Shown: positions 26,642 to 64,000, counted from the first letter of the stretch. The stretch: 64,000 bases of DNA from Escherichia coli (GCF_041248615.1 NZ_CP158426.1), one strand, 5' to 3'. The notes: a model not told the origin generated them from the letters alone. Made by a program: numbers and translations.

Positions 26642-28642
26642 TCATCCTTGTTGCTGAAGCATGGGGAATAATTGTTCGCAAAGCAAAACACCGTTATTCA
26701 TTGCTTCTACCCGTGCCTCGCTTTCTGTATTACGAAATTGTGCCAACACATGTGCCAGCCGATAAAAACCGACCGCGGTGAGGTCATTCGCCAGCAACTC
26801 TGCCTGACCAATAGCACTCTGTTCCTGATAGCGCCAGCCGTTATGGAGCAGTTGAATAAGTAATGCCTGGCAGCGCATCAGCAACTGATGAGCGGTAGAC
26901 GGCACAGGCAAAACGCTGGCAGAAGGTAGCGGAGCCACAGGCGCAGTTTCTGCGTCCAGCGCCCAGGCGCGGGTTTTTGTCATCATCACCCGTGGTTCCA
27001 GTGTCAATTGCCCCTCTACAAAGCTGACAAAGCCAGAAACCAGACTCACGGGGTCGTCTGTTTGTTGCAACAGAGCTGCCATGCGTTCAACGGCAAAAGG
27101 AGAACAGGCAGATGCTGGAAGGGATAATGTCAGCACATTATCTTCCCCTTCGCCGCTAATGACCTGCGCATCCAGTGTCTGGCGGCTGCTATCCCAACCG
27201 AGCGAAATACACTCCGCTACCGGCAGAATAAATAAGTTATCGACCTGGTTGAGTGGTCGTATGCAGGCGGGGGGACGCTGGCGTAAATATTCCCGCAAAG
27301 CCACAATGCCCGGCTGGCGCAATGGCGCGCTCAACATTTGCCAGGCGTCTGGCGACAGCGGCACAACACTACTCAAGCGGTTGCGGGTAGCTAACAACAG
27401 CTCGCCATCGGCACTGCGTTTTGCTGCTTGTGAAACAATTTGCCCACCTGCCAGTGCGCCAGCCTGAAAACTAAATAGCCGACGTTTTGCCGCGGGAGCG
27501 TTTTCTTGTTCGCTTCTCGGCCAACTACGCGAAAGGTGCAAAATACTGCCGGTGTCGGGATCGGTGAACCAGATGCGTAAACCATACTGCTCAATATCCT
27601 GCCAGCAACGCATACCTAAAGACACCAGCCGCAGATGATCAAGCTTTGCTTCTCCGGCAATGCCAGCGCCAACGACCGTGCGCCACGGCACATGAGGAAC
27701 TTCACCAACACTGTCGCGCCGGGCCATCTCTTGTGCGCAATTTAATCGACTGTTTAATGCCGCAAGCTGACGTAAGCATTCCCCGGCATGATAGTGACTG
27801 GCGCGGGCGTGGAAGGCATCAACGCTGGCGCGCAGTTGCCGTAGCGATTCACTTACCCAGCGCCAGTTGCAGCGTTCCGCCGCTTGCTGCGCGCGGCTGA
27901 AAGCGGCCTCGTAGTGAATAAGCGGCTGGCTGATGCCGCCCAGCCATAATGCCTGGCTTAGTTGCTGAACATATTGACGACACGCGTTGCCCTTTTCGCT
28001 GGCAAACGGATCGTCAGATGATGTGACGTGTTCGCTGCGCATCTGCCAGATTAAATGAGTAAATTCCGCTTGCTGAGTTTTGGCCTCGAGGAAGGCCTGC
28101 ACAGCCAGTACGACATGTTCGCAAAGTGTGCCGTCAATACAATCACAACGGGCGAAACGAATACTGCTGCGGGAATAAAAACGCACATCGCTCATCGGTA
28201 AGCGGGCAGAGGGAATTTCGCCCGGCGTACAGAACAACTCAATGGTGATGCCTTTAGCGACCAGAGCCTGTGCGCGTTTGCGGGTGGCATCGGGAAGGGT
28301 AGCCAGTTCTTCCAGCCAGATTGCCGGATCCCATTCCTCTTCTTTTCCCGTAGGCTGGGCGGTAGCACAAAGTCGTTGATAACTTAACACCAGCATCACG
28401 CGATGACGGCACATGCCGCTGGCCCCGCAGGTGCACTGAGCCTCTTTCAGTGCCTGACCGTTCGCCAGCTGGGTACGGACACCGTCACTGAAGGTGGCGA
28501 TTAAAGCGCCGTTCTCATGGCTGATTTCCGGGACGTTGCCATTTTCCAGTTCCTTAAGGCTGCGCTTAACAAAACCGGCATTGCTTAACGCCGTCAGTGC
28601 CTGTGGTGTCAGTTCTAATAATTCCGGACGTAGTGAATTCAT
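26642..28642 (-). CDS. yehQ: SWIM zinc-finger protein, last gene of the MoxR/vWA operon
   Basis: two CxCx5CxH SWIM motifs (CTCGASGMCRH; CDCIDGTLCEH); start set at MNSLRPELLELT so that the ATG overlaps the yehP stop (ATGA coupling). Confidence 0.75.
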   Translation of the reverse strand: MNSLRPELLELTPQALTALSNAGFVKRSLKELENGNVPEISHENGALIATFSDGVRTQLANGQALKEAQCTCGASGMCRHRVMLVLSYQRLCATAQPTGKEEEWDPAIWLEELATLPDATRKRAQALVAKGITIELFCTPGEIPSARLPMSDVRFYSRSSIRFARCDCIDGTLCEHVVLAVQAFLEAKTQQAEFTHLIWQMRSEHVTSSDDPFASEKGNACRQYVQQLSQALWLGGISQPLIHYEAAFSRAQQAAERCNWRWVSESLRQLRASVDAFHARASHYHAGECLRQLAALNSRLNCAQEMARRDSVGEVPHVPWRTVVGAGIAGEAKLDHLRLVSLGMRCWQDIEQYGLRIWFTDPDTGSILHLSRSWPRSEQENAPAAKRRLFSFQAGALAGGQIVSQAAKRSADGELLLATRNRLSSVVPLSPDAWQMLSAPLRQPGIVALREYLRQRPPACIRPLNQVDNLFILPVAECISLGWDSSRQTLDAQVISGEGEDNVLTLSLPASACSPFAVERMAALLQQTDDPVSLVSGFVSFVEGQLTLEPRVMMTKTRAWALDAETAPVAPLPSASVLPVPSTAHQLLMRCQALLIQLLHNGWRYQEQSAIGQAELLANDLTAVGFYRLAHVLAQFRNTESEARVEAMNNGVLLCEQLFPMLQQQG

Positions 28643-43782: not shown

Positions 43783-44892
43783 ATGAACGAACAATCCCAG
43801 GCCAAATCACCAGAAGCCTTGCGCGCAATGGTCGCCGGGACACTGGCCAATTTTCAGCACCCAACCCTGAAGCATAACCTCACCACGCTGAAAGCGTTGC
43901 ACCATGTCGCCTGGATGGACGACACGTTGCATGTGGAACTGGTTATGCCATTCGTCTGGCATAGCGCGTTCGAAGAGTTAAAAGAGCAATGTAGCGCCGA
44001 ACTGCTGCGCATCACCGGGGCGAAAGCTATCGACTGGAAACTGTCGCACAATATCGCCACCTTAAAACGCGTGAAGAATCAGCCGGGAATTAACGGCGTG
44101 AAGAACATCATTGCGGTCAGCTCCGGTAAAGGCGGCGTGGGTAAATCTTCCACGGCGGTAAACCTGGCGTTGGCACTCGCGGCGGAAGGGGCGAAAGTCG
44201 GCATTCTGGACGCCGATATCTACGGCCCATCAATCCCCACCATGCTGGGCGCAGAAAATCAGCGTCCAACTTCGCCGGACGGTACCCATATGGCACCGAT
44301 TATGTCTCATGGACTGGCAACCAATTCAATTGGTTATCTGGTCACTGACGACAATGCGATGGTGTGGCGTGGTCCGATGGCGAGCAAGGCGTTAATGCAG
44401 ATGTTGCAGGAAACCTTGTGGCCGGATCTCGACTATCTGGTGCTTGATATGCCGCCAGGCACCGGTGACATTCAATTGACACTGGCACAAAACATTCCAG
44501 TAACTGGCGCGGTAGTGGTCACCACCCCGCAGGACATTGCGTTGATCGATGCGAAAAAAGGCATTGTGATGTTCGAGAAAGTCGAGGTTCCGGTGCTCGG
44601 TATTGTCGAGAACATGAGTGTGCATATTTGCAGTAACTGTGGTCACCATGAACCGATTTTCGGTACCGGTGGTGCTGAGAAACTGGCTGAAAAATACCAC
44701 ACACAGCTGCTGGGGCAGATGCCGTTACACATCTCCTTACGTGAGGATCTCGATAAAGGCACGCCAACGGTTATCAGCCGTCCGGAGAGCGAATTTACCG
44801 CTATCTACCGCCAGCTGGCTGACCGCGTTGCAGCTCAGCTCTACTGGCAGGGTGAAGTCATTCCAGGCGAGATTTCCTTCCGCGCGGTCTAA
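43783..44892 (+). CDS. apbC: Fe-S cluster carrier P-loop ATPase (Mrp/ApbC)
   Basis: start set at MNEQSQAKSP giving 369 aa; deviant Walker A SGKGGVGKSS; CxxC (CSNCGHH). Confidence 0.9.
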   Translation: MNEQSQAKSPEALRAMVAGTLANFQHPTLKHNLTTLKALHHVAWMDDTLHVELVMPFVWHSAFEELKEQCSAELLRITGAKAIDWKLSHNIATLKRVKNQPGINGVKNIIAVSSGKGGVGKSSTAVNLALALAAEGAKVGILDADIYGPSIPTMLGAENQRPTSPDGTHMAPIMSHGLATNSIGYLVTDDNAMVWRGPMASKALMQMLQETLWPDLDYLVLDMPPGTGDIQLTLAQNIPVTGAVVVTTPQDIALIDAKKGIVMFEKVEVPVLGIVENMSVHICSNCGHHEPIFGTGGAEKLAEKYHTQLLGQMPLHISLREDLDKGTPTVISRPESEFTAIYRQLADRVAAQLYWQGEVIPGEISFRAV

Positions 44893-52074: not shown

Positions 52075-52109
52075 TACTCCCCCCCAGTACCTGATACTAC
52101 CCCCCAGTA
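52075..52109. promoter_or_regulatory. two RcnR operator sites (TACT-G6-N-AGTA) in the rcnA-rcnR divergent promoter region
   Basis: plus strand reads TACTCCCCCCCAGTA and TACTACCCCCCAGTA 5 bp apart; matches the published RcnR recognition motif. Confidence 0.8.
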
Positions 52110-52157
52110 GATTAATAGTGCTATGATTTTTCATATTCTTATTAACCAGGTGTTGCC

Positions 52158-52430
52158 ATGTCTCATACCATCCGTGATAAACAGAAACTGAAAGCGCGTG
52201 CCAGTAAGATTCAGGGCCAGGTCGTGGCGCTCAAGAAAATGCTCGACGAGCCGCACGAATGCGCTGCAGTTTTACAACAGATTGCTGCTATCCGTGGCGC
52301 GGTAAACGGTCTGATGCGGGAAGTGATTAAAGGTCATCTGACGGAACACATCGTTCACCAGGGGGATGAGCTAAAACGTGAAGAAGATCTGGATGTCGTT
52401 CTGAAGGTGCTGGATTCTTATATCAAATAA
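52158..52430 (+). CDS. rcnR: Ni/Co-responsive transcriptional repressor (CsoR/RcnR family)
   Basis: 90 aa; matches recalled RcnR; divergent from rcnA. Confidence 0.9.
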
Positions 52431-52519
52431 TTTATTAACGCTATTGTAAAACTGCCGTTTTTCCTCGTTTACAACGCGTGCGCTGGACATTACCATCCTC
52501 CTCTGCGATTTATCATCGC

Positions 52520-52600
52520 AACCAAACGACTCGGGGTGCCCTTCTGCGTGAAGGCTGAGAAATACCCGTATCACCTGATCTGGATAATGCCAGCGTAGGT
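52520..52600 (+). ncRNA. TPP riboswitch aptamer (thi-box) of the thiM leader
   Basis: AACCAAACGACTCGGGGTGCCCTTCTGCGTGAAGGCTGAGAAATACCCGTATCACCTGATCTGGATAATGCCAGCGTAGG matches the recalled E. coli thiM TPP aptamer; similarity ends at about 52600. Confidence 0.85.
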
Positions 52601-52654
52601 TGCCAACATTCTGATTAGTATTCATGTGGTTACATTTCTTTTTGTCCGTGTGTA

Positions 52655-53986
52655 ATGCACCTAATGTACAAAAAGAGCGTAAACATGAGGTACAAAACTC
52701 TTCCATACACGTTTCAAAGAAACGGTAATTACTATCTACAGATTCGGCTTTCGAATGGTCGGATGTATAAAAAATCACTTCTCACTGACAGCTATCGTGA
52801 AGTCTCTGCTTTGATGATTGGTGTTGCTCCGTACATTCCTTTTGTTAAATCATTAGCCATCACAATCCCGATGTTTGATGCCTTTGTTTCAAACCTGATT
52901 ATGTCAAAACTTAGGGCTGTAAAAGTTCCGCTGCTATCACATCAGTCGGTAATTACCCCTGCTACATTCGAGGAACCAGCGACACAAGCCGAACCGCAAA
53001 ACATGCTAACTCTTTCTGATGCGTGGGCTATGTATAAAGCGGAAAAGGGTAAAACATGGACAAAGTCGATCTCAAGGGCGAATGAGCGTTACATGGAAGT
53101 CTTGATGGTTGTCTTGGGAGAGACAACTGACGTAGTTGCGATTTCTAAGCAGGACATCAAGCAGGTGATGGAAGTTGTTGAGAATTTGCCTAAGCGTGTT
53201 GTCCAACCGTATCGCTCAATGAACATCCAGCAACTGATTGAATGTGATGATGTATCACCGAATGAGTTAGTAGGAGTGGAAGCCATTCATAAGCATCTCA
53301 AAATCTACAAATCGCTTTTCAAGACTTTTCTAACAGAAAACAAAGATATTTTGATTAAATCCCCAACTGATGGGGTAGTAGCAGCACCATCTAAAGCAAG
53401 GTTTGGAGCATACAGTTCGGCGGAGATGAAGAAGTTTGTAGAGTGGGCACTTAAGCAGCCAGATGGCTGGCAGAAGTGGATAACATTGTTGTTGGCATAC
53501 ACAGGAGCCAGAAGGGGAGAAATTGCCAAACTGGAAAAATCACAAATAAAATATGATGAGGATAGCCATCGGTATTATTTCCTGATTGCAGAAGGAGGGC
53601 AGGGGAAAACCGAAAATGCTACCCGACAAGTAGTGATACACCCTAAGTTGATCGAATGGGGTTTCATGGAATACGTTGATCGCCAGTGGAAAGAACGGAT
53701 TTTTTCAGAAGTGGCTGGTACAAACATGACGAAGATCGGTAAAGAATTTGCTGATGTGCGTGACCAGCTTGACATTCCGTACTTAGACGATTTTGGACAG
53801 CGGAGGCTTTTGCATAGCATTCGTCATTCTGTTTGCTCTACTGCGATGGCTGGATGGGTAAAGAACATCTTGCATCTGCAACAAACAGTAGGCCATGAGA
53901 AAAGTGGAGGGATCACTAAACGCTACTTACATACGTTCCCACTATCATCAATTTGTTATGTTATTGATGGGATTAGTTGGGTCTGA
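52655..53986 (+). CDS. tyrosine-type site-specific integrase (island integrase)
   Basis: C-terminal catalytic box LHSIRHS...GH...Y (R-H-R-Y tyrosine recombinase motif); true start may be the Met at 52685. Confidence 0.75.
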   Translation: MHLMYKKSVNMRYKTLPYTFQRNGNYYLQIRLSNGRMYKKSLLTDSYREVSALMIGVAPYIPFVKSLAITIPMFDAFVSNLIMSKLRAVKVPLLSHQSVITPATFEEPATQAEPQNMLTLSDAWAMYKAEKGKTWTKSISRANERYMEVLMVVLGETTDVVAISKQDIKQVMEVVENLPKRVVQPYRSMNIQQLIECDDVSPNELVGVEAIHKHLKIYKSLFKTFLTENKDILIKSPTDGVVAAPSKARFGAYSSAEMKKFVEWALKQPDGWQKWITLLLAYTGARRGEIAKLEKSQIKYDEDSHRYYFLIAEGGQGKTENATRQVVIHPKLIEWGFMEYVDRQWKERIFSEVAGTNMTKIGKEFADVRDQLDIPYLDDFGQRRLLHSIRHSVCSTAMAGWVKNILHLQQTVGHEKSGGITKRYLHTFPLSSICYVIDGISWV

Positions 53987-54203
53987 AACTGCTAAGAATG
54001 ATAGGAAAAGCTACTTAATGATCCTTAGTTTTGGATGAAATTGAAGATTACAAAGATCTTGAGCGAATAAGAGCGTTTTTTAATCAAAAAAGCCATAAAA
54101 ACTTTTCTTGACTGTATATTAACACAGTGCTTCTACTATGTAGAAGAAATCGACATGAAAAATTTGATATGGTAAATTTTATCCATGATAACAAAAAGGT
54201 ATT

Positions 54204-55106
54204 GTGGATATGTTACTACCAATACGAGTTCATAAACGATTTCTAACTTTATTTAAGACTTTGCAAATTGACGATTGCCCACCGCAATCAACTTTAAATA
54301 TTCATGTACTTAATATCGAAAGCAATGAATTTATATACTGTAAATTAGTTGAAGAATTACGTGACATAATAATTACTTATGTACATTCGAATAGAAGGCT
54401 TGAGGAGTTTAAGGAAAGTTATCCTTCGTATAGCCCTAAACCTTTTTTCGAAGCAATACAAAAATTTCGCAATTATACGTCAAACGAAGGTGAGTTAGGT
54501 GAACTGCTTTTATACGCTTTTCTTGAAACAGGACTAAATGCTCCGAAATTACTTTCCAAAATGCAATTGAAAACAGATTCTAATGATTACATTAAGGGTT
54601 CTGATGGTGTACATCTGTTAGAATTAGATGATGGTTATCAATTAATATTTGGAGAATCAAAGCTCTATGCCGATCTTTTAGAAGGTGCTCGAGAAGCGTT
54701 TGATTCTATTTTAGATTTTAAAAGTAATGGAATGGCATTTGAAAGAGGGCTGATAGATACACACGTTATAAATGAAATGGTTTCAGAAGAAGGTTATGAG
54801 AAAATAAAATCAATTCTTCTTCCTTCTTCTGGCGATGATGGGCCAGATCTTGATTTATCCTTTGGTATATTTCTTGGTTTTGAATTGAAAATAGATAGCT
54901 CACAGTTATCATTGAAAAACAAAGAGTTTAGAGATTGGGTTAATGAGTCCGTGAAACAACATGCTACTCGCGTGGTCAGTACGATACGAAGGAAAATTAT
55001 TAATCATAAATTATATGGTCACGAATTCCACATATATATAGTTCCTTTTACCGATATTGATGTTACACGAAAAAAATTAATTCATGAAATGCTAACAATT
55101 AAGTGA
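54204..55106 (+). CDS. PD-(D/E)xK-like putative nuclease, HamA-like (Hachiman-type effector candidate)
   Basis: 300 aa; motif ELDDGYQLIFGESK (D...ExK); stop overlaps the start of the downstream helicase gene by 4 nt; low GC, island context. Confidence 0.5.
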   Translation: MDMLLPIRVHKRFLTLFKTLQIDDCPPQSTLNIHVLNIESNEFIYCKLVEELRDIIITYVHSNRRLEEFKESYPSYSPKPFFEAIQKFRNYTSNEGELGELLLYAFLETGLNAPKLLSKMQLKTDSNDYIKGSDGVHLLELDDGYQLIFGESKLYADLLEGAREAFDSILDFKSNGMAFERGLIDTHVINEMVSEEGYEKIKSILLPSSGDDGPDLDLSFGIFLGFELKIDSSQLSLKNKEFRDWVNESVKQHATRVVSTIRRKIINHKLYGHEFHIYIVPFTDIDVTRKKLIHEMLTIK

Positions 55107-57691
55107 ACACTATGAATGAATTAAATTCAAGTAAAAACATTCATTTGGCAGCTCGTCTTGCAGATGATGCTTTTGAAAGTGCTTATTTTAAAGAAATCAA
55201 TAAGTTTATAAGTGGTTTATACAATTACAGTTTATTTAACTGCGATTCAGATGTTAGTCTCTCCGAGAGTGATAACAATAAAATAGCACACGCTTTGCGT
55301 TTTGCAGATATATTTTCACATTCTTCAAAAGAAAATCATAGATCATGTGCATTTGAAATTATAAGTAGAATAGCCTTATTAAAAAAACATGATCCTTATT
55401 TTAAATTTATAGGTACTGCTGTTATTAATCGGCTTGGGGTTTATGCAGCAGAAAAACTCATATCAAAAGGGGTAAAATTACCCTTAGATAGAGAAGTTGA
55501 TTCTATTATTAAAAAATCAGTTCAGAAAACAGATGAAGATGGAGTATATTTCACTGATAAACAACATGAGTTATACAAACTTTTAAAAAGTAGCAAAACA
55601 ATTAGTTTTGCTGGTCCCACTTCGATGGGAAAGTCATTTGTTATTAATGCATACATTAAGGAAATAACTCTTAAAAAAGAGCTTAAAAATATAGCTTTAA
55701 TTGTTCCTACACGGGCTTTAATAAGCCAAAATGCACTTAAGTTAAAAATTGATATTGCATTGTATAAGAATGAAAGCCCTTATAAAGTTGTTACGACATC
55801 CTACATTATTAATGGTGATGAAAGTAAAAATAAAGGCTATATTTTTATTCTCACCCCAGAAAGGCTGGTTAGTCTCATAAGCACTATTCCTGGACTAATG
55901 ATTGATTATGTTTTTGTAGATGAAGCTCAAAAGTTAACAACAAAAAATGATTCGAGGAGTCTTGTTACTTATTCAGCTATAGAGCAAACAATTAGTAAAA
56001 ATCCTGAGGCAAGATTATTCTTCTCTTCACCTAATTTATCTAATCCTGAAATATTTAATATTTTGTTTGATAGAAAAGACGCTTCGGTATATAGAAATAC
56101 AGAAGGTGCAACTACTCAGAATATGTATTTTATTGATCTTTTAAATAGCAGCTTTAGCTATGTTAATACCGAGAAAAGGACGCTTGAAAAAATAGATGAG
56201 ATCTCTAATACTTACACGAATACAAATGATGTTATCTATAAATTAAATAATGGTAAAAGTAAAATAATTTATTGTGGGGGGATAGAAAGCACGCTTGAGA
56301 GAACACGTAGCTTTATCAATTATCTCAAAATTAATAAGAAAAAAAGAAAGCATTTAAATTTAGAAATATCTTCTGAGATAAGAAACTTTGTTCATGATAA
56401 CTATGAACTTGCAGAAGCCATCAACTATGGTGTTGCTTTCCACTTTGGAAACTTGCCTCAATCGATTCGAGATTTAATTGAGCATCATTTCAAAATAGGA
56501 AATATTGACTATCTATTCTGTACATCAACCCTACTTGAGGGAGTCAATTTACCTGCAAGATCCGTATTTATTCTTACGCATAAAAAAGGCCCCAGTCCAT
56601 TAGAGTCGGTTGATTTTTGGAATCTGGCTGGGAGAGCTGGGCGATTATCTATGGAATTGTCAGGGGATATTTTTTGTATTAGGGATGATAATAAGCTTTG
56701 GAATAAAAAAGCTGTTGATAATATCCTTCTGTCTGACAAAAATAACATTTCATTAAAGCCAAGCTTCTATATTGAAGACGAAAAAAGATTGAACGATTTA
56801 CACCATATAATTACGACTGGTAAAACAGGGAATATTAAAAATGCTGAGTTCCTTAGAACTTTAGGAGATATGATAAGAATAGACACTCTGAGGGATTCTA
56901 AAGAACTTCCTCTTATTAGTTATTTCCAAAGCAGTGGAAAATCAGAAATTTTGTTAAGTGCAGAAAAAAGCACTGAAAATATTACCATGCCAATGAATAT
57001 CCTTTTGGCAAATAGTCATATTGCGATTGATTCGCAGTATCATGCTTTTAAAAAAATAAAAAGCCTTACAGTTAAGGAACTGAAATTATCATGGCAGCCT
57101 ACATACGAAGAAATTAAAGAAAAATTGAATTTGATATTCGATATTTACCAAGTTGAAAAGTTTGCAACAGGTAGAGAACGTCTTTATTTAAATTCAATTC
57201 CATATTATGCAGTATTACTGTTTCAATGGATTCGTGGAAATAGTCTACAGGAAATTATCTCGGGGGCAATTGCTTATAGAAAGAACAAAAGTATATATAT
57301 TAAAAATACACCTGTTCTTTTTGACAGCGAAAACCCAGCTCATTTAACTGCATTAGTTAATGAAACTATAAAAGACATTGAGTTGCGTGTAGGTTACCAG
57401 TTACAAAATTATTTTTCACATTACTGTCAGCTTCTGAATTATGTGTTACAAGGAAATCCAGGGGCAAACTGGTCTCAGTTCATTGAGTTTGGCTCTAATG
57501 AGCCAATAGTATGGCACCTACAAATGATGGGCTTTTCAAGGGATAGTGCAGTTTTTCTCAAGAAGAATTTTTCAAAACATCTTAAACTTGATAATGAAAT
57601 GAATAAACTCATCATAATGGATAAGGAACTGATCAAGCGTTCTTTCAAAAAAGATGGACTACATTACTTAGAAATCCAATCGTTATTATAA
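55103..57691 (+). CDS. SF2 helicase, HamB-like (Hachiman-type helicase candidate)
   Basis: 862 aa; Walker A AGPTSMGKS, Walker B FVDEAQK, SSP motif, motif V TSTLLEGVNLP and motif VI AGRAGR. Confidence 0.55.
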   Translation: MNTMNELNSSKNIHLAARLADDAFESAYFKEINKFISGLYNYSLFNCDSDVSLSESDNNKIAHALRFADIFSHSSKENHRSCAFEIISRIALLKKHDPYFKFIGTAVINRLGVYAAEKLISKGVKLPLDREVDSIIKKSVQKTDEDGVYFTDKQHELYKLLKSSKTISFAGPTSMGKSFVINAYIKEITLKKELKNIALIVPTRALISQNALKLKIDIALYKNESPYKVVTTSYIINGDESKNKGYIFILTPERLVSLISTIPGLMIDYVFVDEAQKLTTKNDSRSLVTYSAIEQTISKNPEARLFFSSPNLSNPEIFNILFDRKDASVYRNTEGATTQNMYFIDLLNSSFSYVNTEKRTLEKIDEISNTYTNTNDVIYKLNNGKSKIIYCGGIESTLERTRSFINYLKINKKKRKHLNLEISSEIRNFVHDNYELAEAINYGVAFHFGNLPQSIRDLIEHHFKIGNIDYLFCTSTLLEGVNLPARSVFILTHKKGPSPLESVDFWNLAGRAGRLSMELSGDIFCIRDDNKLWNKKAVDNILLSDKNNISLKPSFYIEDEKRLNDLHHIITTGKTGNIKNAEFLRTLGDMIRIDTLRDSKELPLISYFQSSGKSEILLSAEKSTENITMPMNILLANSHIAIDSQYHAFKKIKSLTVKELKLSWQPTYEEIKEKLNLIFDIYQVEKFATGRERLYLNSIPYYAVLLFQWIRGNSLQEIISGAIAYRKNKSIYIKNTPVLFDSENPAHLTALVNETIKDIELRVGYQLQNYFSHYCQLLNYVLQGNPGANWSQFIEFGSNEPIVWHLQMMGFSRDSAVFLKKNFSKHLKLDNEMNKLIIMDKELIKRSFKKDGLHYLEIQSLL

Positions 57692-57697
57692 AACTGC

Positions 57698-57727
57698 CGA
57701 ATCAGAGTCTTTTATTGATTCTGATTC
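57698..57727 (+). terminator. hairpin downstream of the helicase gene (no clear U-tract)
   Basis: CGAATCAGA-(loop)-TCTGATTCG. Confidence 0.35.
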
Positions 57728-57999
57728 GCACTTATATAGTTAAATCAAAAGGAGCATTAAAATTTTTCAGTAGCGATTTAGTATGCTAAATCGCTGCATA
57801 ACGAATCTGCTTCTAAATCTTGATTAAGTGTTTCGAACTGCCTTGATTGTTTATTGCTACACTTTATAATTAATCGCAACACACAAAACAATACAATGTA
57901 GGCAGTTGCACAGAATTAATTACAGGCACATTATGGATATCGAGAGGATTCGAACAGTTTTAAACTGCAAGCCCTTTGACTTTATCCCCTCCTACTATA

Positions 58000-58575
58000 T
58001 CAGCGTTTGATGCCGCTAATACTGGCAAGCATTTCTTTCTTCACACGAAAAACTGTAGCCCTGCCGCAATCACATAACTTTGCTATCTCGTCTGGTGTAT
58101 TCTTCCCGGCCTGTAACATATCGATAATCTTGTTATGTAGCTCTTTGTTCTTTTGCTTGCCCTTGTACTTCTTAGCCTCTTTAGCAAGAGCAATCCCCTC
58201 ATTGCGACGAGATGCGATCATACCCCGCTCAAATTCTGCAGCGGCTCCCATCATGGTTAGGATAAGGCGTGATTGTGGGGAATTATCAAAACTCATAGAG
58301 TTTGCAAGGAATTGAACAGTGATTCCACGAGCCACGAGGTTATCAATCATTTCCAGCAAATCGCGGGTATTACGTGCAAGGCGATCAATCGAGTGAGTAA
58401 CGAGCGTGTCACCTTCGCGGAGGTGTGAAAGCAGGTTCAACAATTCAGGTCTTTCGCTGGTGGACTTACCTGATTCTTTCTCTGCCACAATTTTGTCACA
58501 AACAGGTTCCAGCACTGCCAACTGACGCTCAAGATTTTGATCCTTTGTTGAGACTCTCGCGTAACCAAAAATCAT
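58000..58575 (-). CDS. serine recombinase (resolvase/invertase family)
   Basis: N-terminal catalytic domain MIFGYARVSTKDQ with catalytic Ser, C-terminal HTH; 191 aa. Confidence 0.85.
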   Translation of the reverse strand: MIFGYARVSTKDQNLERQLAVLEPVCDKIVAEKESGKSTSERPELLNLLSHLREGDTLVTHSIDRLARNTRDLLEMIDNLVARGITVQFLANSMSFDNSPQSRLILTMMGAAAEFERGMIASRRNEGIALAKEAKKYKGKQKNKELHNKIIDMLQAGKNTPDEIAKLCDCGRATVFRVKKEMLASISGIKR

Positions 58576-58589
58576 TTTCCTGCCCTCAC

Positions 58590-58665
58590 TTACGTGAAAA
58601 GTATCATTTGAATTTACTTAATGATACAGTATCATTTAAATGCATTCAACATCTAAATGATACTA
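58590..58665. promoter_or_regulatory. res-like recombinase binding site (imperfect inverted repeats) upstream of the serine recombinase gene
   Basis: repeated TATCATTT(A/G)AAT half-sites in inverted orientation (GTATCATTTGAAT...ATGATACA; TATCATTTAAATG...ATCTAAATGATAC). Confidence 0.5.
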
Positions 58666-59125
58666 AACGAGACGAGAAAAGCGAGTATCGTTAGGGAGTA
58701 CCCAAAAGAGATTTTTGATCGTGCGTTTTTTAGTCAATGTAGGGTTAGTGAAAAGTTCAGTACCGAGATCTGAGTTCACGGCATTTTGTCGACGGGGTTG
58801 AACCTGATTAGGCGAACGAGATTTTAAATCAGGCGGAATAAAACAAGTTGTACTTTTATCTGAGTAAAAGATCCCTTTAACTTTTTAGTCAGAAATCGTG
58901 ATACTAGGGGTTTGGTTATTTTGTGTCCTTAAGGCCAGTACTTTTAGCGAGGACGAAAAAACGGCCTACATGAGAACGCTTACAGTAACTTAAGTATATT
59001 ATCCAAAAAGTCACTTAACTTAAATCAATTTGGATGCAAAATCGCCACACTTTGCAAGTGAACACATACCGGGCAACAAGCAAATAAAAAAGGCCACTTT
59101 CGCGACCTTGTACCAGTACAAACAC

Positions 59126-59485
59126 TCATTCAGAACGATCAAGTACCATATATGCTGGCTGACACATGCTGCCCCGCTCCTGTAGCCAGTAGTAATCAAG
59201 ATCGGCAACACGCACGTCCAATCCAGAATCTACACGGTTGATCTGTAACCGTAGCCCTACAGTATCCTTGTACGATAAACCAGATTTAACATTGTATTTG
59301 TACTTAACACCGTTTTCCTGTTCAAACTGTTTAAGGAAAGGCGTCATTTGTTTCTGAATTTCTTTCAAACAAATAACCTCATTATCAATAGCAAAGGGGG
59401 GTTCTGTTTTTCCATCAGGTACAGCAGCCTGTAAATGAAAGGAAGTACTCAACAATAACAGCATTGCAACAGAAGTCTTTTTCAT
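59126..59485 (-). CDS. small secreted protein of unknown function
   Basis: 119 aa; cleavable signal peptide MKKTSVAMLLLLSTSFHLQA; 43 nt downstream of the membrane protein gene. Confidence 0.6.
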   Translation of the reverse strand: MKKTSVAMLLLLSTSFHLQAAVPDGKTEPPFAIDNEVICLKEIQKQMTPFLKQFEQENGVKYKYNVKSGLSYKDTVGLRLQINRVDSGLDVRVADLDYYWLQERGSMCQPAYMVLDRSE

Positions 59486-59528
59486 TTTAATTCCTTATTA
59501 AAGAACAGTACATTATATTTCAATGGAC

Positions 59529-60569
59529 TTAATAACAATATTTTATATTTCCTTCGGGTTTTCTCATGCATTTAATTCCTTCAGGAATATAATCAGTTAC
59601 GGGAGCAGGTCTGGCATCAGGTCTTGAAAGACGATTGGATATAGAAGACAACAGACTGAAAACACACTCATTAAATGATTTTTGATATTTATTTTTTTCA
59701 TAAAAGTACTGCATGGTGATTTTATCTCTTTCGTATTGCAATTCTTTGCCAAGCTGAATCCTATCCATATCAATTCCATTTCTCATAGCATTAAATCTTT
59801 CGTTCAATAAATTAAATTGAGATTTATTCCATTCATTTAAAGGAAATAAAGAATTGTTAAGCCTTTGCCTACAATTAGATTGCTCGATAGCTGACATGTA
59901 TTCTTTCATACTAACGCCAATATCTAAGTATGTGAGTTGTCCAGCAGTTCTATCAACTGAGTTATTAGGGTAAGATTTAATTTCAGTAAGTATTGACTCT
60001 GTTAATACTGCATTTTCTTCTAAATCTTTGCTAATAGTTATTTGAGCTTGTTCTCTTTTATCCTTATCAAATATTGAAATGTATTTCTTTACTATATCCT
60101 GATTAGCTTTCTCGGCTGCTACTAACGCATCTTGAACCTTCTTTTCCGCCGCTTTAACTCGTTGTTCTTCTACAAATTTCGCGTAGTCATCAGTATTTGT
60201 AATGTGATTTTCACGAGCGATAGAAAACTCTTTACTATCTTTAAAACCAAGTTTTTGTGCTCTGGCTCCATCGCTTGAAGATCGGGCAGAACTTGCCACG
60301 AAAGCGAGCACAATGATCAGTACAGGAACCGTATAATTATTAACGAGTTTATAGGGTAAGAACTTCGCTTTAAGCGTACCATAACCCAAAACAGCCCAGC
60401 CTATCGCGGCAGTACTTGCCAGTAGCTGGCACAATCCAGCGACGGAAAGCATGATTACCGACCAGAAGCCTGTACCGACTGCGAAAAGATCACCAAATTT
60501 CTCCATTGACGCAAGGAATAAAAACACTCCCCAAATGCCATAAAATCCTATTTTCAAATATTTACTCAC
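59529..60569 (-). CDS. 3-TM membrane protein with large charged coiled-coil-like C-terminal domain, unknown function
   Basis: 346 aa; three N-terminal hydrophobic helices followed by a K/E/Q-rich soluble domain. Confidence 0.6.
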   Translation of the reverse strand: MSKYLKIGFYGIWGVFLFLASMEKFGDLFAVGTGFWSVIMLSVAGLCQLLASTAAIGWAVLGYGTLKAKFLPYKLVNNYTVPVLIIVLAFVASSARSSSDGARAQKLGFKDSKEFSIARENHITNTDDYAKFVEEQRVKAAEKKVQDALVAAEKANQDIVKKYISIFDKDKREQAQITISKDLEENAVLTESILTEIKSYPNNSVDRTAGQLTYLDIGVSMKEYMSAIEQSNCRQRLNNSLFPLNEWNKSQFNLLNERFNAMRNGIDMDRIQLGKELQYERDKITMQYFYEKNKYQKSFNECVFSLLSSISNRLSRPDARPAPVTDYIPEGIKCMRKPEGNIKYCY

Positions 60570-60779
60570 CGCAATTATCCTTTAATAATTTTCCAAATCG
60601 ATGGTTCGTTCTATTTGTATTATCGACAATAATTCGTTTGCCTTTAGGTAGATCCCTTAAAAAGGAATCCCCCCAAAATTTATAGATTAGCAGTTGTACC
60701 ACTCTCACTGTTTTGTCACTCCCATTATCTTCTCTCAGGTCAAAAGTACGGACTTAAAGCCGTCCGTGTTCAGGTGCTC

Positions 60780-60900
60780 AAGAGTAGCACGCATATCAAT
60801 AAATGATCGATAAAAACGATCAATTAATGGCTTATTGATCGCTATAACCTATCAATGACTATTAATTCAATACAAATCAATAGGTAAAATCGATCAAGAG
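60780..60900. repeat. AT-rich cluster of ATCAAT/ATTGAT repeats with GATC sites (iteron/origin-like or protein-binding array)
   Basis: five ATCAAT/ATTGAT copies and four GATC sites within about 120 bp, in an ORF-free region. Confidence 0.45.
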
Positions 60901-61552
60901 GATTCGTCATCCATGAAAGGGGTTATGTATCTGATTTCAATACAGGGAGTATTAGCGATACCATCACGCAAACGCTCTTAAAGCGTAGCTACGGCGTTTT
61001 GTAGGGTTTTTGGTCATTCATGTGTGTCAGTAATGAACATCGCATTCAGGGGCTTCCTGTGCGTTTTGTCCGAAACACCATCATGAAGGGGGACAGATCG
61101 GATCGGGGTCGCTTCGCTCTGGTCAGTACTGGATAGTTCTTTTCCAGTAACTGAAACCGCAGATACCCCACTAAGTACACAAAGGAATTATTTGTAGAAT
61201 AAGTAATGAAATAACAGTCAGTTATGTACTTACTGACAGAACTAAAAACGCGATTAGGTTCGCTCTGTCAGTGACCGAAGGGAACGCAACAGTAGAATCT
61301 AATCCAGCGAACAGTACACGCAAGCGGGTGCTGTTTAATTGTTTTATCTATGTAAACAATGGGATAGCTATCAAGTACTCACTGCGTGAGCACTCTCACT
61401 AACTACCCGAAACAGTTCGCTTGCTTCGCCGCTCCTACTTTCAGGTAGTTAATTCGCTTTCGCTCGTTGTGATGTCCGAAATTTATTACCTATAGTATTA
61501 TAAGGTATTATTTTCCGGACATTTATGTATTTTTATGATGGTGTTCTGGACA

Positions 61553-63028
61553 TCATTTTTTGCTTTTTTGTACTTCCTTTTCGTATTTGTTCCACATAGC
61601 CTTTTGCTCTTCGGGACTGAGTGCTGTATTACCACTGGCAAGAAACACCTTGAACGCTTCTAACTCAAGCCCTGGGTTGCGGCTTTTCCAGCGGCGAAAA
61701 CGCTTAGCGTGATTATCATCAAGAGTGAAACGCTTTTGCTTATTCTTTGAACCTTGCGGCCTGCCTCTCGACCTCTGCTCATCATCAATACCGATATCTA
61801 TATACTCAATATTATCTGTAAGAGATCTGGCTTGCCATTCATCAAAAACATAAACAGTCTGTGTTTCAGTACTGTCAAAATCCCTTGAAATTCCTCGTAG
61901 TACGAACTGGTGTAAACTTTCGTACTCCCTCGCAACATGTATCGCCTCGCCGTCAATCTCAAAGAACAATTCGCACTGTTTAGCCTCTGTTTCAGAGGGA
62001 CGCATACAAGCGAGCCAGACGCACGTGAGCAAGTGTTGGTACTGGTTAAACCCTCTGGCATCCGGGCTTATCTCTGTGCCGTTTTTGAGGCTCTGAGAAT
62101 CGCTTTTGTTCTTCGTCCAGTAGAAATCCTGTCCCTCAAGTTTTTTATCAATAAATGAGTATATTTTTTGTACTTTATCAGGGTTATTAGTCTTCCATGT
62201 CTTCGATAGTTTTTGATTTTTTGAGAAGTAATAAACCTTTAATCTGTCTTTGAGAGCTGTTTTTCGTGTCAGTAATCCTCCAAGTTCAGTACTTTCAAAG
62301 AGTTCTTTATTGCCTTTATAGATCAATGAATTTTCGAAATTAGCTCCGAGAAAGGTGATTGATACGTCTTTGTACTTACTGAGATCTTTCCATGCGGTAA
62401 TATTAAGCTGTTCCTTTTTCGCATCGGTAAAGTACTCATTATTCATGATGAACATATCATTTTCGTTAATTGCTGGTAGCTGGTTCAAAATATTCTTCAG
62501 TACTTCCCCTTGTATTTCTGGTTTTCTTTCTGCCGCAATATACATATTTTTATCATCTAATGTCAGTACATTGTGTATTAATGAATTAAGAATTGTATTT
62601 TTTATATTAGTATCACCCTCATTAATATTCTGAAAAGAGTGAAAATTAGTAACGTCGTCAATATAAATATTACAGTCAGATAACAATTCAGGAGGAATTT
62701 TGAAAAACGTTTTATCTGTTATGAGTAATGTTTTATTACTTCCAGATGAAAGAAAGTTAATAACTGAATTAATAACACTTTCATCTTTTGGTACTGTATC
62801 TGTAATTATATACTCGCAATTATTGATTTGCTTTGCTGTCTGCTTAATAAGTTCTTGAGTGTTCTGTACTAAAATATATTTTTCAGTACTGTTATTGATT
62901 ATATTGCATATAGCAGTAGTTTTACCTGAACCACAAGGGGCGGAGACATACTTAAATTTATTATAAATAGGTGTGGGATTAATCATTTGTACACGCTCCA
63001 TATTGATTAATGTAGAAAGGTCAGCCAT
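61553..63028 (-). CDS. P-loop NTPase with C-terminal AT-hook (RGRP-GSKNK) DNA-binding tail, unknown family
   Basis: 491 aa; Walker A APCGSGKTT near the N-terminus, candidate Walker B NIYIDDV; C-terminal RSRGRPQGSKNKQKR matches the AT-hook consensus. Confidence 0.6.
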   Translation of the reverse strand: MADLSTLINMERVQMINPTPIYNKFKYVSAPCGSGKTTAICNIINNSTEKYILVQNTQELIKQTAKQINNCEYIITDTVPKDESVINSVINFLSSGSNKTLLITDKTFFKIPPELLSDCNIYIDDVTNFHSFQNINEGDTNIKNTILNSLIHNVLTLDDKNMYIAAERKPEIQGEVLKNILNQLPAINENDMFIMNNEYFTDAKKEQLNITAWKDLSKYKDVSITFLGANFENSLIYKGNKELFESTELGGLLTRKTALKDRLKVYYFSKNQKLSKTWKTNNPDKVQKIYSFIDKKLEGQDFYWTKNKSDSQSLKNGTEISPDARGFNQYQHLLTCVWLACMRPSETEAKQCELFFEIDGEAIHVAREYESLHQFVLRGISRDFDSTETQTVYVFDEWQARSLTDNIEYIDIGIDDEQRSRGRPQGSKNKQKRFTLDDNHAKRFRRWKSRNPGLELEAFKVFLASGNTALSPEEQKAMWNKYEKEVQKSKK

Positions 63029-63359
63029 TCCAGTGTCTGGCCTTTCGTTGTTTTAGTTATTAGTCTTTTTGAGTTGCGACAACTGCAAGAGAATGTTTAT
63101 AAACAAGTGAAATAAGCAGTTTTACCGCCTCAAAAGCTACAGTCAGTTTCGTAATTATTTTCGAAAGCATCGTAAATTTCACTTCGCTATCTTCTATGCA
63201 AAAATTAGCAGCCTGAGGTATTTAATGATTGAGATGTGGCCTGTTGATAAGAGGGTTTGTATTGCTTGTTCTGCTCTTTGTTAATTTGTGACTTATTCCT
63301 TTCACAATGATCGGCTATGTTTGATAACTCTGTTAGGAAATCACCTATGGCTACCATAT

Positions 63360-64000
63360 TGGATTTGCCCCTATATTTCCAGACACCTGTTATCACTTAA
63401 CCCATTACTGGCCTGCTGCCGCAGATATTCCCGTGGCGAGCGATAACCCAGTGCACTATGCGGATGCCATTCGTTATAATGCTCGAACGCCTCTGCAAGG
63501 TTCTTTGCTGCCGTTAACCCGTCTGGTTTAGGCATGATACTGATGTAGTCACGCTTTATCGTTTTCACGAAGCTCTCTGCTATGCCGTTACTCTCCGGAC
63601 TCCGCACCGCCGTGTTCTTCGGTTCAAGCCCCAATATCCGGGCAAACTGCCGTGTTTCATTAGCCCGGTAGCATGAACCATTATCCGTCAGCCACTCTAC
63701 TGGAGACGCCGGAAGCTCGTTGCCGAAGCGGCGTTCCACCGCTCCCAGCATGACGTCCTGTACTGTTTCACTGTCGAAGCCGCCCGTAGTGACTGCCCAG
63801 TGCAGTGCCTCACGGTCACAGCAGTCCAGCGCGAACGTGACTCGCAGTTTTTCTCCGTTATCACAGCGGAACTCGAACCCGTCAGAGCACCATCGTTGAT
63901 TGCTTTCTTTCACGGCCACTTTGCCAGTATGTGCCCGTTTCGATGGCGGTACAGCGGTTTTTCGCTCAAGCAACAGCGCATTCTGGCGCATGATCCGGTA
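63360..64000 (-). mobile_element. IS2 (IS3 family), partial; right terminal inverted repeat at about 63360, element runs past the window end
   Basis: terminus TGGATTTGCCCCTATATTTCCAGACA matches the recalled IS2 end; encoded protein matches the recalled IS2 InsD (OrfB) C-terminus. Confidence 0.85.
63371..64000 (-). CDS. insD: IS2 transposase OrfB (InsD), 3' portion; 5' end beyond the window
   Basis: translation ...[39 protein letters not shown]...[19 protein letters not shown] matches recalled InsD (DDE integrase core). Confidence 0.85.

Follow-up and report, generated by a model that had tools for sequence, protein, structure and literature searches.

An island of low-GC DNA in front of thiM in this E. 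coli strain is, with high probability, a site-specific integrative element whose tyrosine integrase uses the TPP riboswitch aptamer of thiM as attB. Judged from alignment and predicted RNA structure, a complete thiM riboswitch survives at the far junction (attR). The window referred to below is the whole 64,000-nt stretch of DNA that was analysed, and all positions are counted from its first nucleotide.

Island Boundaries and Insertion Site

Alignment of the rcnR-thiM region of K-12 with the window showed identity up to 52599, ending in …GCCAGCGTAGG, and divergence from 52600, where K-12 continues with GAAGTCACGG and the window with TTGCCAACAT. The initial annotation had placed the end of similarity to the K-12 thiM leader at about 52600, after the aptamer, and this breakpoint stands, since the K-12 leader does not continue with the window sequence. 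Its description of the DNA from 52600 onwards as foreign and low in GC was also borne out: GC content was 0.363 (36%) for 52600-63359 compared to 0.512 (51%) for 1-52519, and flank windows of equal size all had at least 0.454. The features read at this left junction were as follows.

52468..52496, plus strand: candidate native thiM promoter TTTACA-N17-TACCAT, read from the sequence and the same in K-12
52520..52599, plus strand: attL identity block, an 80-bp aptamer copy without the 3′ strand of P1 (direct repeat, Rfam, K-12 empty-site alignment)
52573..52619, no strand: candidate core, an imperfect dyad CTGATCTGGATAATGCCAGC / GTTGCCAACATTCTGATTAG centred on GTAG, at the 3′ end of the identity block

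The far junction was located in the full record of E. coli NRZ14408 (accession no. NZ_LT599825.1; locus L001), which matched at 100%. A second junction was found there 1.2 kb beyond the window end, and thiM, which had been said to lie outside the window, was shown to start at the equivalent of window coordinate 65318. A perfect 80-nt direct repeat, containing GCGTAGG, was present at 52520-52599 in the window and at 28086-28165 in L001 (equal to window 65185-65264), with a spacing of 12665. It corresponds to the thiM TPP aptamer minus the 3′ strand of P1. The element between the repeats is 12.7 kb, made up of an 11.3-kb island and IS2. The island is bounded by these direct repeats (attL and attR), and the uninterrupted attB is present in K-12 and most E. 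coli. At attL the order is native promoter, aptamer and island DNA with int; at attR it is island DNA, aptamer and native expression platform with thiMD. The claim of an insertion after the aptamer was thus correct for the position of the breakpoint, but a simple insertion it is not, since the att identity block is the entire aptamer, now present in two copies.

The Two Riboswitch Copies

PGAP calls two TPP riboswitches, one ahead of int and one ahead of thiM. With the Rfam TPP model (RF00059; gathering score 54.3), the attR copy scored 71.2 bits, as did K-12, and the attL copy scored 58.0 bits (match at 52522-52617). The attR copy is the same as K-12 from the aptamer through thiM, so that complete aptamer, native platform and regulated gene are all present. 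In the attL copy, three of the five pairs in P1 are non-canonical, and island DNA stands in place of the native platform; although above the gathering score, this copy does not have the closing P1 and expression platform of a complete aptamer. In related loci, attR copies from six other genera scored 73-78 bits, and attL copies scored 55-63 bits or below threshold, several still passing the Rfam threshold. At attL, the native aptamer has been orphaned and is probably a by-product without function.

Read on its own, the window shows an aptamer followed by island DNA and no thiM, as if a simple insertion had severed the riboswitch from thiM and deprived thiMD of its promoter and TPP control. This reading, to which we assign practically no chance, was refuted by the 80-nt repeat, the alignment of K-12, attL and attR, and the attR Rfam score: a second, full-scoring aptamer is joined to the native platform, 34 nt ahead of thiM, and a second aptamer is likewise found in every related locus with the far end captured.

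Position of the Crossover

The minimal identity common to attL/attR pairs was ACCTGATCTGG…GCGTAG. In eight further loci the 3′ edge of the identity block was always GCGTAG(GG), and the 5′ edge was variable, the block measuring 31-80 bp across attL/attR pairs. The core dyad CTGATCTGGATAATGCCAGC / GTTGCCAACATTCTGATTAG showed 13/20 reverse-complement matches when counted by eye and a visible hairpin in the fold, and clade-2 islands have a sharper dyad, GGATAATGCCAG-CGTAGTC-CTGGCGATTATCC. We infer that strand exchange, including the exact cleavage positions, lies in the 3′ THI-box near GCGTAG, within ACCTGATCTGG…GCGTAG.

With a crossover in the 3′ THI-box, nearly the whole attR aptamer and everything upstream of it would come from the island. 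In ETEC1732 the attL is K-12-like, and 5′ variants specific to the island, AATCTACATGACTC and a TTAAA P3 loop, are found at attR. The P3 helices may differ between copies yet compensate (CCCTTC…GAAGG vs CCCCATC…GATGGG), the attR alleles being island-specific but structurally compensated. The comparison suggests that the attR aptamer is partly or mostly of island origin. In L018 the copies differ in the P5 loop, which would shift the crossover further 5′ unless the difference is a later decay.

The Integrase and Its Relatives

52685..53986, plus strand: tyrosine integrase of 433 aa (PGAP start; alternative ORF start 52655), assigned by Pfam, PHROG and motifs

The integrase matched Pfam PF00589 (8.7e-07) and PHROG 1 integrase (1.3e-25) and contains the catalytic R…HxxR…Y residues, with ARRGE, HSIRH and KRYLH invariant in the alignment of its relatives. 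These relatives (n = 22; 55-84% identity) come from ~17 genera of Enterobacterales. In 20 of the 22 loci a TPP aptamer on the strand of int ends 89-98 nt upstream of the gene, and thiM lies ~55-100 nt past the second aptamer in all seven loci that yielded both copies and a detected thiM; L013, outside this count, has both aptamers and a fetched sequence that stops ~30 nt past the second. Upstream of attR, triple arm-like motifs were found with a 12-nt period, and another copy overlaps the start of the int gene (here AGGTACA, codons 2-4). The motif switches from GGTACA to GACACA with the integrase subclade. These periodic repeats are putative arm-type integrase sites, with the GTAG dyad as the candidate core. 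From this comparison, the integrase clade is seen as dedicated to the thiM riboswitch across Enterobacterales. Several relatives have split integrase genes, which implies that many of the island copies are fossils.

The 80-bp repeat might instead stem from homologous recombination or another duplication, with the integrase as a bystander. It is long for the core of a tyrosine recombinase, and narrow, exact-match searches of viral and metagenome contigs recovered neither an excised circle nor an attP junction. However, long identity blocks are usual for elements that rebuild their target, such as tRNA-targeting islands, according to what PMC12884075 relates of Williams (2002). The conserved distance from aptamer to int across ~17 genera, the arm-type repeats that co-vary with the integrase subclade, and the fixed 3′ edge next to a variable 5′ edge of the identity block all argue against a bystander. 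In TB06052, moreover, a new island lies inside the aptamer that an older remnant had restored, that is, the site has been re-used in tandem. We therefore consider a bystander integrase extremely improbable, and favor integrase-mediated recombination at the aptamer.

Promoters and Possible Control of int

The native thiM promoter (52468..52496) is a putative one, read from its hexamers. At the right ends of class-A islands, TTGnnn-N17-TAnnnT was found at equal offset in nine of nine cases, at most 2-3 nt from the position of the native TTTACA-N17-TACCAT. This proposed island promoter has three of six consensus positions per hexamer, and a consensus promoter scan of the 500 bp preceding attR gave no sigma-70 site on the plus strand. 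The island apparently brings a candidate promoter for thiMD at the native distance.

The native thiM promoter at attL is directed toward int, which both there and on the excised circle lies ~85 nt beyond a TPP aptamer. Together with the conserved aptamer-int distance (89-98 nt) and the attL copies that in several loci still exceed the Rfam threshold, this could mean that the aptamer regulates the element, with thiamine status controlling integrase synthesis and hence integration and excision. Against this, the 3′ strand of P1 is restored in no attL flank class, where scores are 55-63 bits or sub-threshold. The flank past GCGTAG differs by class (a palindrome, a dyad or neither of these), leaving no expression platform common to them, and the MFE fold pairs the flank with P4/P5, disrupting the aptamer. 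A conserved TTACAT-N17-TAATGC nearer int, identified by eye, could be the promoter of int itself. Such control of int was judged very unlikely, and the aptamer is taken to serve as attachment site.

Defence Cargo and Island Backbone

54210..55106, plus strand: HamA, DUF1837 effector nuclease of Hachiman type I (PADLOC HamA1; PDB 9wh1_A)
55112..57691, plus strand: HamB, sensor helicase of Hachiman type I (PADLOC HamB1; PDB 9wh1_B)
58000..58575, minus strand: small serine recombinase of resolvase/invertase type, 191 aa (PHROG, NCBIfam, motif)
58600..58664, no strand: three copies of AGTATCATTTRAAT (two direct, one inverted), upstream of the recombinase gene
59126..59485, minus strand: backbone gene for a 119-aa protein without family match; synteny kept in L008, L009 and L010
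59529..60569, minus strand: backbone gene, 346 aa, hydrophobic N-terminus (translation)
60570..61552, no strand: conserved 1-kb ORF-free region (no ORF of at least 60 aa), GATC cluster at 60805-60892
61553..63028, minus strand: SF2 helicase-like ATPase, 491-aa ORF (PGAP 61553-62986; Pfam, AlphaFold)
63202..63359, minus strand: 3′ part of a 74-aa ORF cut by IS2 (comparison of L001 with the IS-free island L002)
63360..64000, minus strand: IS2 (IS3 family), a secondary insertion running beyond the window end

The gene content initially listed (integrase, nuclease/helicase pair, serine recombinase with repeats, three genes, ORF-free region and IS2) was upheld, and the att repeat, the Hachiman genes and the K-12 alignment agree with the view of a composite, integrase-borne island with anti-phage cargo at an unusual non-tRNA site. 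The nuclease/helicase pair is Hachiman type I, a predicted anti-phage system. HamA matched PADLOC HamA1 over its full length (E 2.4e-120) and HamA in PDB 9wh1_A (E 9e-10); HamB matched HamB1, also over its full length (E 8.3e-296), and 9wh1_B (E 3e-120). The two genes are adjacent, 5 bp apart. As in described Hachiman type I systems (PMC12278908, the source for the mechanism, and PMC11914072), a DUF1837 nuclease gene neighbors an SF2 helicase gene, and the pair shows no unusual feature.

These genes occupy a variable cargo slot between int and the small serine recombinase gene. In sister islands the same slot contains TIR-NACHT, TIR-domain, AAA-ATPase, PDC-S25 plus PD-Lambda-2, Old-like or AbiU genes. 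Islands with different cargo become homologous to this one from 58002-58024 onward, which by this comparison is the right edge of the slot, at the 3′ end of the recombinase gene. Cargo is thus exchanged between conserved flanks as in the defence hotspots of mobile elements (P2/P4; E. coli, PMC10121019), the flanks here being int to the left and the 3′ end of the recombinase gene to the right. In PMC10121019, rcnR-thiM is a location outside the numbered hotspots with MGE type 'None', and a backbone of SF2 helicase-like protein, 1-kb non-coding region and serine recombinase is not among the named MGE classes.

The serine recombinase, of ~190 aa with catalytic serine and HTH, matched PHROG 125 DNA invertase (5.3e-58, residues 1-181) and Mpi/XisF-type NCBIfam models and has the N-terminal motif YARVST. 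The AGTATCATTTRAAT copies in the cluster, with 0-2 mismatches, are the closest in the 64-kb window; other matches, at 44469 and 49685, have three mismatches and lie outside the island, and no second, distant recombinase site of this type was found in the window. The cluster looks like a res site or an operator. The 119-aa protein gave zero matches in PADLOC, NCBIfam and PHROGs, and the 346-aa protein gave no significant match in searches that included these three; the latter is probably a membrane protein, because its N-terminus is hydrophobic. The ORF-free region (60570-61552), which borders the helicase-like gene, is ~85% identical to L010, level with the flanking genes, and has no Rfam family; a gap of ~0.9-1.1 kb also follows the homologous gene in Providencia and Rouxiella. 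The region may be a replication origin or some other cis element. The helicase-like ATPase matched Pfam ResIII in the P-loop region only (8e-05) and had no PADLOC match; its AlphaFold model (pLDDT 74.6) was closest to the DinG/XPD helicase folds in PDB (E ~1e-5, TM ~0.4). The backbone, from this ATPase through the non-coding region and the two small/membrane proteins to the recombinase, also travels with other integrases and is plausibly a replication and maintenance module.

The IS2 copy is 1331 bp long with a 5-bp target duplication (CATAT) and, as expected for IS2, a PGAP-annotated IS3-family transposase with programmed frameshift. The 74-aa ORF that it cuts, next to attR, is intact in L002 (21103-21327), and IS2 is missing from seven islands that are otherwise 99.7-99.9% identical. 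This ORF has no family match, and a recognisable excisionase was not found, which counts against the reading as an integrative island. On this comparison, IS2 is a later insertion near the right end of the island in this strain.

A helicase beside a conserved non-coding region could be the replication module of a phage satellite, the helicase-like protein matches a PHROG of unknown function, and true cf-PICI-like satellites are found in the same riboswitch in other strains. That the island itself is a PICI- or P4-like satellite mobilised by a helper phage is nevertheless very unlikely. Hallmark genes of phage satellites were not found: the island proteins include no homologues of capsid, portal, terminase, AlpA, Icd or primase (PADLOC, NCBIfam, PHROG, Pfam). 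The sole relative of the helicase-like protein in the phage database, from a jumbo Agrobacterium phage, has 23% identity. The cf-PICI satellites (L004, L005) share the thiM aptamer as attB with the island, but their integrase is unrelated and recombines at a different, 15-bp core in mid-aptamer, and they split the aptamer without regenerating it and, unlike the island, encode capsid and packaging genes.

Occurrence in E. coli

In 4728 of 5424 E. coli genomes the thiM site was contiguous and empty. Of 5426 complete genomes of the species, 579 (~11%), O157:H7 and strain B among them, had island-type DNA immediately before the thiM aptamer. The proteins flanking L001 and L002 are identical, and the eight near-identical islands may therefore share ancestry rather than represent independent insertions.

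Relation to Known Elements and Proposed Mechanism

A riboswitch as attachment site was not found reported in the literature. [quoted passage not shown] In these (Williams, 2002; Islander/TIGER; P4-type integrases), int lies beside att, as in this island. Further shared features are a conserved structured-RNA target with built-in dyad symmetry, an attP that holds a copy of the target so that a functional unit survives integration (here attR, scoring as K-12), tandem re-use of the site, its use by unrelated elements, and defence cargo. However, the target of the island is not a tRNA or tmRNA but the RF00059 TPP riboswitch of thiM, a cis-regulatory mRNA leader instead of an RNA gene. Whereas tRNA islands rebuild the 3′ end, this island replaces the 5′ part (promoter and aptamer), a mirror image, which places the intact unit at the int-distal junction and leaves the native promoter orphaned before int. 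Phage attB sites in rybB (hotspot #29; PMC10121019) and in ffs 4.5S RNA (PMC12540744) are likewise structured RNA loci other than tRNA; these are trans-acting RNA genes, whereas a ligand-sensing riboswitch must stay fused to its downstream operon.

In the proposed mechanism, the integrase would recombine attP with the thiM aptamer, the exchange taking place in the 3′ THI-box. Integration would swap the 5′ end of thiMD for an island-borne promoter and aptamer, the host expression platform staying in place, and Hachiman type I would be the selectable cargo of the island. After integration, the native promoter and aptamer would end up directed into the integrase gene, and thiM would retain a whole riboswitch because the island carries its own copy of the sensor.

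Junctions and anatomy of the island

Positions 52100-64000 showed 100% identity to E. coli NRZ14408 (NZ_LT599825.1), and the same island was found at 99.7-99.9% identity, without the terminal IS, in seven other complete genomes. Similarity to K-12 had been noticed to stop at about 52600, after the TPP aptamer, and alignment with the K-12 rcnR-thiM intergenic region showed this breakpoint to be exact, the sequences being identical through 52599 (…GCCAGCGTAGG) and unrelated from 52600. Rfam placed the TPP aptamer at 52522-52617 with 58.0 bits (gathering score 54.3). The description of the following DNA as low-GC and foreign was borne out by a GC content of 36.3% in 52600-63359 compared to 51.2% in the preceding 52.5 kb, and the lowest value among flank windows of equal size was not under 45.4%.

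A second junction with an att repeat, expected downstream, was found there. The source record contains two annotated TPP riboswitches, one before the integrase gene and the other 34 nt before thiM, the latter 1.2 kb past the window end. A repeat search across the locus detected a perfect 80-nt direct repeat (AACCAAACGACTCGGGG…GCCAGCGTAGG), the copies of which are spaced 12,665 bp apart; without IS2, the island measures about 11.3 kb.

Main features of the island (window positions unless a locus is named)
52520-52599: left copy of the 80-nt repeat (attL)
52685-53986: tyrosine integrase gene (int)
54210-57691: nuclease/helicase pair (HamA/HamB)
58000-58575: small serine recombinase
60570-61552: ORF-free region of 1 kb
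63360: insertion point of IS2 (1331 bp, 5-bp duplication CATAT), disrupting a 74-aa ORF that is intact in IS-free copies
NRZ14408 locus (L001) 28086-28165: right copy of the 80-nt repeat (attR)

In a three-way alignment K-12 represented attB: attL consists of the K-12 left flank, the 80-nt block and island DNA, and attR of island DNA, the 80-nt block and the right flank of K-12, which includes the expression platform and thiM. This 80-nt block corresponds to the whole aptamer minus the 3′ strand of helix P1, and for this reason the Rfam score of the attL copy falls to 58.0 bits, three of its five P1 pairs being non-canonical, whereas the attR copy keeps the K-12 score (71.2 bits). The initial interpretation as a whole, an integrase-borne island in the thiM leader, was supported. 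Exact-match searches detected no attP junction in viral or metagenome contigs, which therefore gave no evidence for an excised form.

Related integrases and their target

A profile built from four E. coli integrase alleles detected 22 loci with 55-84% identity in Enterobacter, Erwinia, Citrobacter, Silvania, Lelliottia, Winslowiella, Rahnella, Cedecea, Pantoea, Pluralibacter, Klebsiella, Franconibacter, Mangrovibacter, Pseudenterobacter and Trabulsiella. In 20 of these loci a TPP aptamer, on the strand of int, ended 89-98 nt upstream of this gene, and the two loci without it are truncated integrase matches. A second aptamer copy was present 3.3-11 kb downstream in eight loci, and thiM started about 55-100 nt past it in all seven loci with both copies and a detected thiM homologue; the related locus L013 has both copies, but its fetched sequence stops about 30 nt after the second, and it is not among these seven. 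Rfam scores for the related loci were 73-78 bits for attR copies, and 55-61 bits or below threshold for attL copies. Judged by sequence, this is an integrase clade dedicated to the thiM TPP riboswitch.

Three repeats with a 12-nt period were found upstream of attR, reading (A/G)GGTACA in the subclade of the window island, with more copies in the P arm, one of them overlapping the int start codon (52688-52694). In the subclade with 61-67% identity, the motif G(G/T)(G/C)ACACA occupies the same positions. Since the repeats co-vary with the integrase, this argues for putative arm-type binding sites. No common excisionase candidate was found, because the 74-aa ORF by attR shows no relationship to the "HTH-like" ORF that sister islands have at that place.

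Mapping of the crossover

Both copies are identical in the window island, and relatives were therefore used for mapping the crossover. In ETEC1732, attL is K-12-like throughout and island-specific variants occur in the first 30 nt of attR (AATCTACATGACTC, P3 loop TTAAA). In all eight loci from other genera the 3′ edge of the identity block is fixed at GCGTAG(G/GG), and the 5′ edge varies, the block being 31 to 75 nt long. The P3 helices may differ between the two copies (CCCTTC…GAAGG compared to CCCCATC…GATGGG); as these are compensated changes, both versions are valid aptamers. The differences lie on the 5′ side, and the crossover is therefore located 3′ of them. The segment ACCTGATCTGG was identical in every attL/attR pair and usually reaches GCGTAG.

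A dyad centred on GTAG was present at attL in two integrase subclades, as CTGATCTGGATAATGCCAGC / GTTGCCAACATTCTGATTAG in the NRZ type and as GGATAATGCCAG-CGTAGTC-CTGGCGATTATCC in clade 2, its left half being the P5 hairpin of the riboswitch itself. This dyad has the look of core-type sites flanking an overlap region, and we infer that strand exchange takes place at the extreme 3′ end of the identity block. With a crossover at that position, the attR aptamer and everything upstream of it would be island DNA, and the host share of the attR unit would be limited to the expression platform, thiMD and the 3′ strand of P1.

Other sequence features were observed around the junctions. A 15-bp palindrome, GGCCGAAATTCGGCC, directly follows the attL block in many family members (L011 19979-19995, loci L013, L016, L018 and L028, and ETEC1732, L012 19979-19995); TB06052 has a compensated variant, GGCCAAAATTTGGCC, and the palindrome is missing from the window island. 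In clade 2 (loci L022, L024, L030 and L032) the aptamer P4-P5 segment TCTGGATAATGCCAGC has an inverted copy in the right end, GCTGGCAT(G/T)ATCCAGA, some 60-75 nt before the attR aptamer; this copy could be an extra core-type site for the integrase or could pair as RNA with the aptamer. The ETEC1732 locus also showed a match to the OrzO-P type I antitoxin RNA near yehK/yehL (L012 851-926, 99.9 bits), unrelated to the island.

In STEC1587 and an O157 strain, the same thiM aptamer was found to be used by cf-PICI-like satellites, which have genes for capsid, portal and terminase.

cf-PICI-like satellites in the thiM aptamer
L004 20126-30315: E. coli STEC1587
L005 3884-20042: O157 Al Ain

Their integrase is unrelated to that of the window island, their core of about 15 bp, (A)AGAAATACCCGTAT, lies in the middle of the aptamer, and they split the aptamer without rebuilding it, PGAP annotating no riboswitch there. 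The satellite integrase together with the junction was found in 76 of 5426 genomes.

Distribution in E. coli and the thiMD promoter region

The site was uninterrupted in 4728 of the 5424 complete genomes with the locus. An integrase gene detectably similar at DNA level to that of the window was found in only 19 genomes. In 579 of 5426 genomes the thiM aptamer was directly preceded by island-type sequence. O157:H7, O55:H7 and E. coli B REL606 are among these 579, and they contain a right-end remnant only and no integrase.

Right-end remnants
L006 6840-9081: O157:H7 (Z1769)
L007 12879-16196: REL606

Because the DNA directly upstream of their aptamer is of island type, the thiMD promoter region of O157:H7, O55:H7 and E. 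coli B is probably derived from a mobile element. The same seems to hold for their thiM leader, a point that matters for work on the thiM riboswitch or on thiamine metabolism in these strains. TB06052 contains a right-end remnant and, within the regenerated aptamer, a complete new island; this tandem insertion shows the island-borne aptamer copy to be a competent attB.

The native promoter candidate, TTTACA-N17-TACCAT at 52468-52496, is now 12.7 kb upstream of thiM and faces int. As the final genes of the island, next to attR, are encoded on the other strand, a promoter for thiMD must be located in the roughly 420 bp that make up the island right end. A sigma-70 consensus scan detected no plus-strand promoter in the 670 bp before thiM. 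All nine collected "class-A" right ends, otherwise diverged, contain TTGnnn-N17-TAnnnT at a constant offset from the aptamer, 2-3 nt or less from the position of the native promoter. This positional conservation is the basis for proposing a thiMD promoter supplied by the island. The attL aptamer was also considered as a working regulator of int and judged unlikely to be one, given the loss of P1 and the lack of conservation downstream.

Cargo and backbone

The nuclease/helicase pair, which had been noticed in a setting typical of anti-phage systems, was identified as Hachiman type I (PADLOC; HamA1 E 2.4e-120, HamB1 E 8.3e-296). Relatives of both proteins have solved structures, and HamB surveys DNA and frees the HamA nuclease on DNA damage (PMC12278908). 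The otherwise identical islands of the NRZ14408 locus and the IS-free locus L002 differ by a 3-bp indel (TCT) in hamA (L001 17729, L002 12729; window about 54828) within a TCT-repeat run, and PGAP gives HamA a length of 298 or 297 aa.

Homology to sister islands restarts precisely where the small serine recombinase gene has its stop codon (58002-58024), and the 4 kb between int and this point therefore form a cargo slot.

Cargo of sister islands in the slot
TIR + NACHT
AAA ATPase + partner
TIR-domain protein
PDC-S25 with PD-Lambda-2; Old-like ATPase; or AbiU

In a survey of E. coli defence islands, rcnR-thiM occurs in a supplementary table only, outside the hotspots and with MGE type "None" (PMC10121019). 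Hotspot surveys have under-called rcnR-thiM, which is a site of defence islands whose cargo is interchangeable.

The small serine recombinase (PHROG 125, 5e-58) is preceded by three copies of AGTATCATTTRAAT; no second, distant copy of the recombinase site was detected that would bound a segment open to inversion or excision. Searches of PADLOC, NCBIfam, PHROGs, Pfam and PDB sequences gave no family match for the 119-aa protein, the 346-aa probable membrane protein and the 74-aa protein, and a P-loop match only for a 491-aa protein. The AlphaFold model of the latter (pLDDT 74.6) resembles DinG/XPD-type SF2 helicases, and the structure search gave no specific function. Conservation of the ORF-free kilobase in the related locus L010 is about 85%, on par with the flanking genes, and no Rfam family matched it even at relaxed threshold; it could serve as an origin or have some other cis-acting role. 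Four of its GATC sites are clustered in a 90-bp stretch (60805-60892), amid repeated ATCAAT/TGATCG motifs.

The same backbone was found in E. coli elements with large serine recombinases, the insertion sites of which are ppdD and the interval from yggR to yggS. It also occurs in Rouxiella and, together with a different tyrosine integrase, in Providencia, and in each case about 0.9-1.1 kb of gene-free DNA comes after the helicase-like gene.

Backbone loci
Window 58000-63028
L009 8989-15636
L010 8064-17693
L035 7385-14943
L036 7994-19196

Besides that of the window island, three integration modules are associated with the backbone, namely the large serine recombinases at ppdD and yggR/yggS and the Providencia tyrosine integrase, and each element bearing it carries different defence-like cargo. 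No PADLOC model matched the module. Its carriers look like an unnamed mobile-element family, and on a speculative reading the backbone would serve replication or maintenance and include a site acting in cis.

Comparison with known integration sites and implications

The window island shares its mechanism with islands targeting tRNA and tmRNA genes, but its target is a riboswitch and it replaces a 5′ control region instead of the 3′ end of a gene. The targeting logic is shared: an ultra-conserved target with dyad symmetry from RNA helices, rebuilt by the element. The insertion site had been called unusual, being a riboswitch leader and not a tRNA, and this view held. No description of a riboswitch as att site, or of thiM as integration site, was found in full-text literature searches. 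Such islands may be held in databases like TIGER, classed as "intergenic". A metabolite-sensing riboswitch is hereby added to the known targets of site-specific integration (tRNA, tmRNA, small RNAs and coding genes), and the point of interest is the att site more than the Hachiman cargo. Besides, the integrase is a candidate tool for site-specific insertion, because its target is conserved across Enterobacterales and operon regulation would be left intact.

A broader reading is improbable when taken as a whole. On it, riboswitch aptamers would constitute one more class of attachment site, mobile elements would rewrite riboswitch-controlled operons, and the integrase clade would spread promoters and alleles of the thiM aptamer among Enterobacterales; in addition, the aptamer before int (in the circle and at attL) could couple int expression to thiamine status. 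If this joint reading were true, thiMD would be expressed from 5′ regions of island origin in about one tenth of E. coli genomes, O157:H7 and B strains among them.
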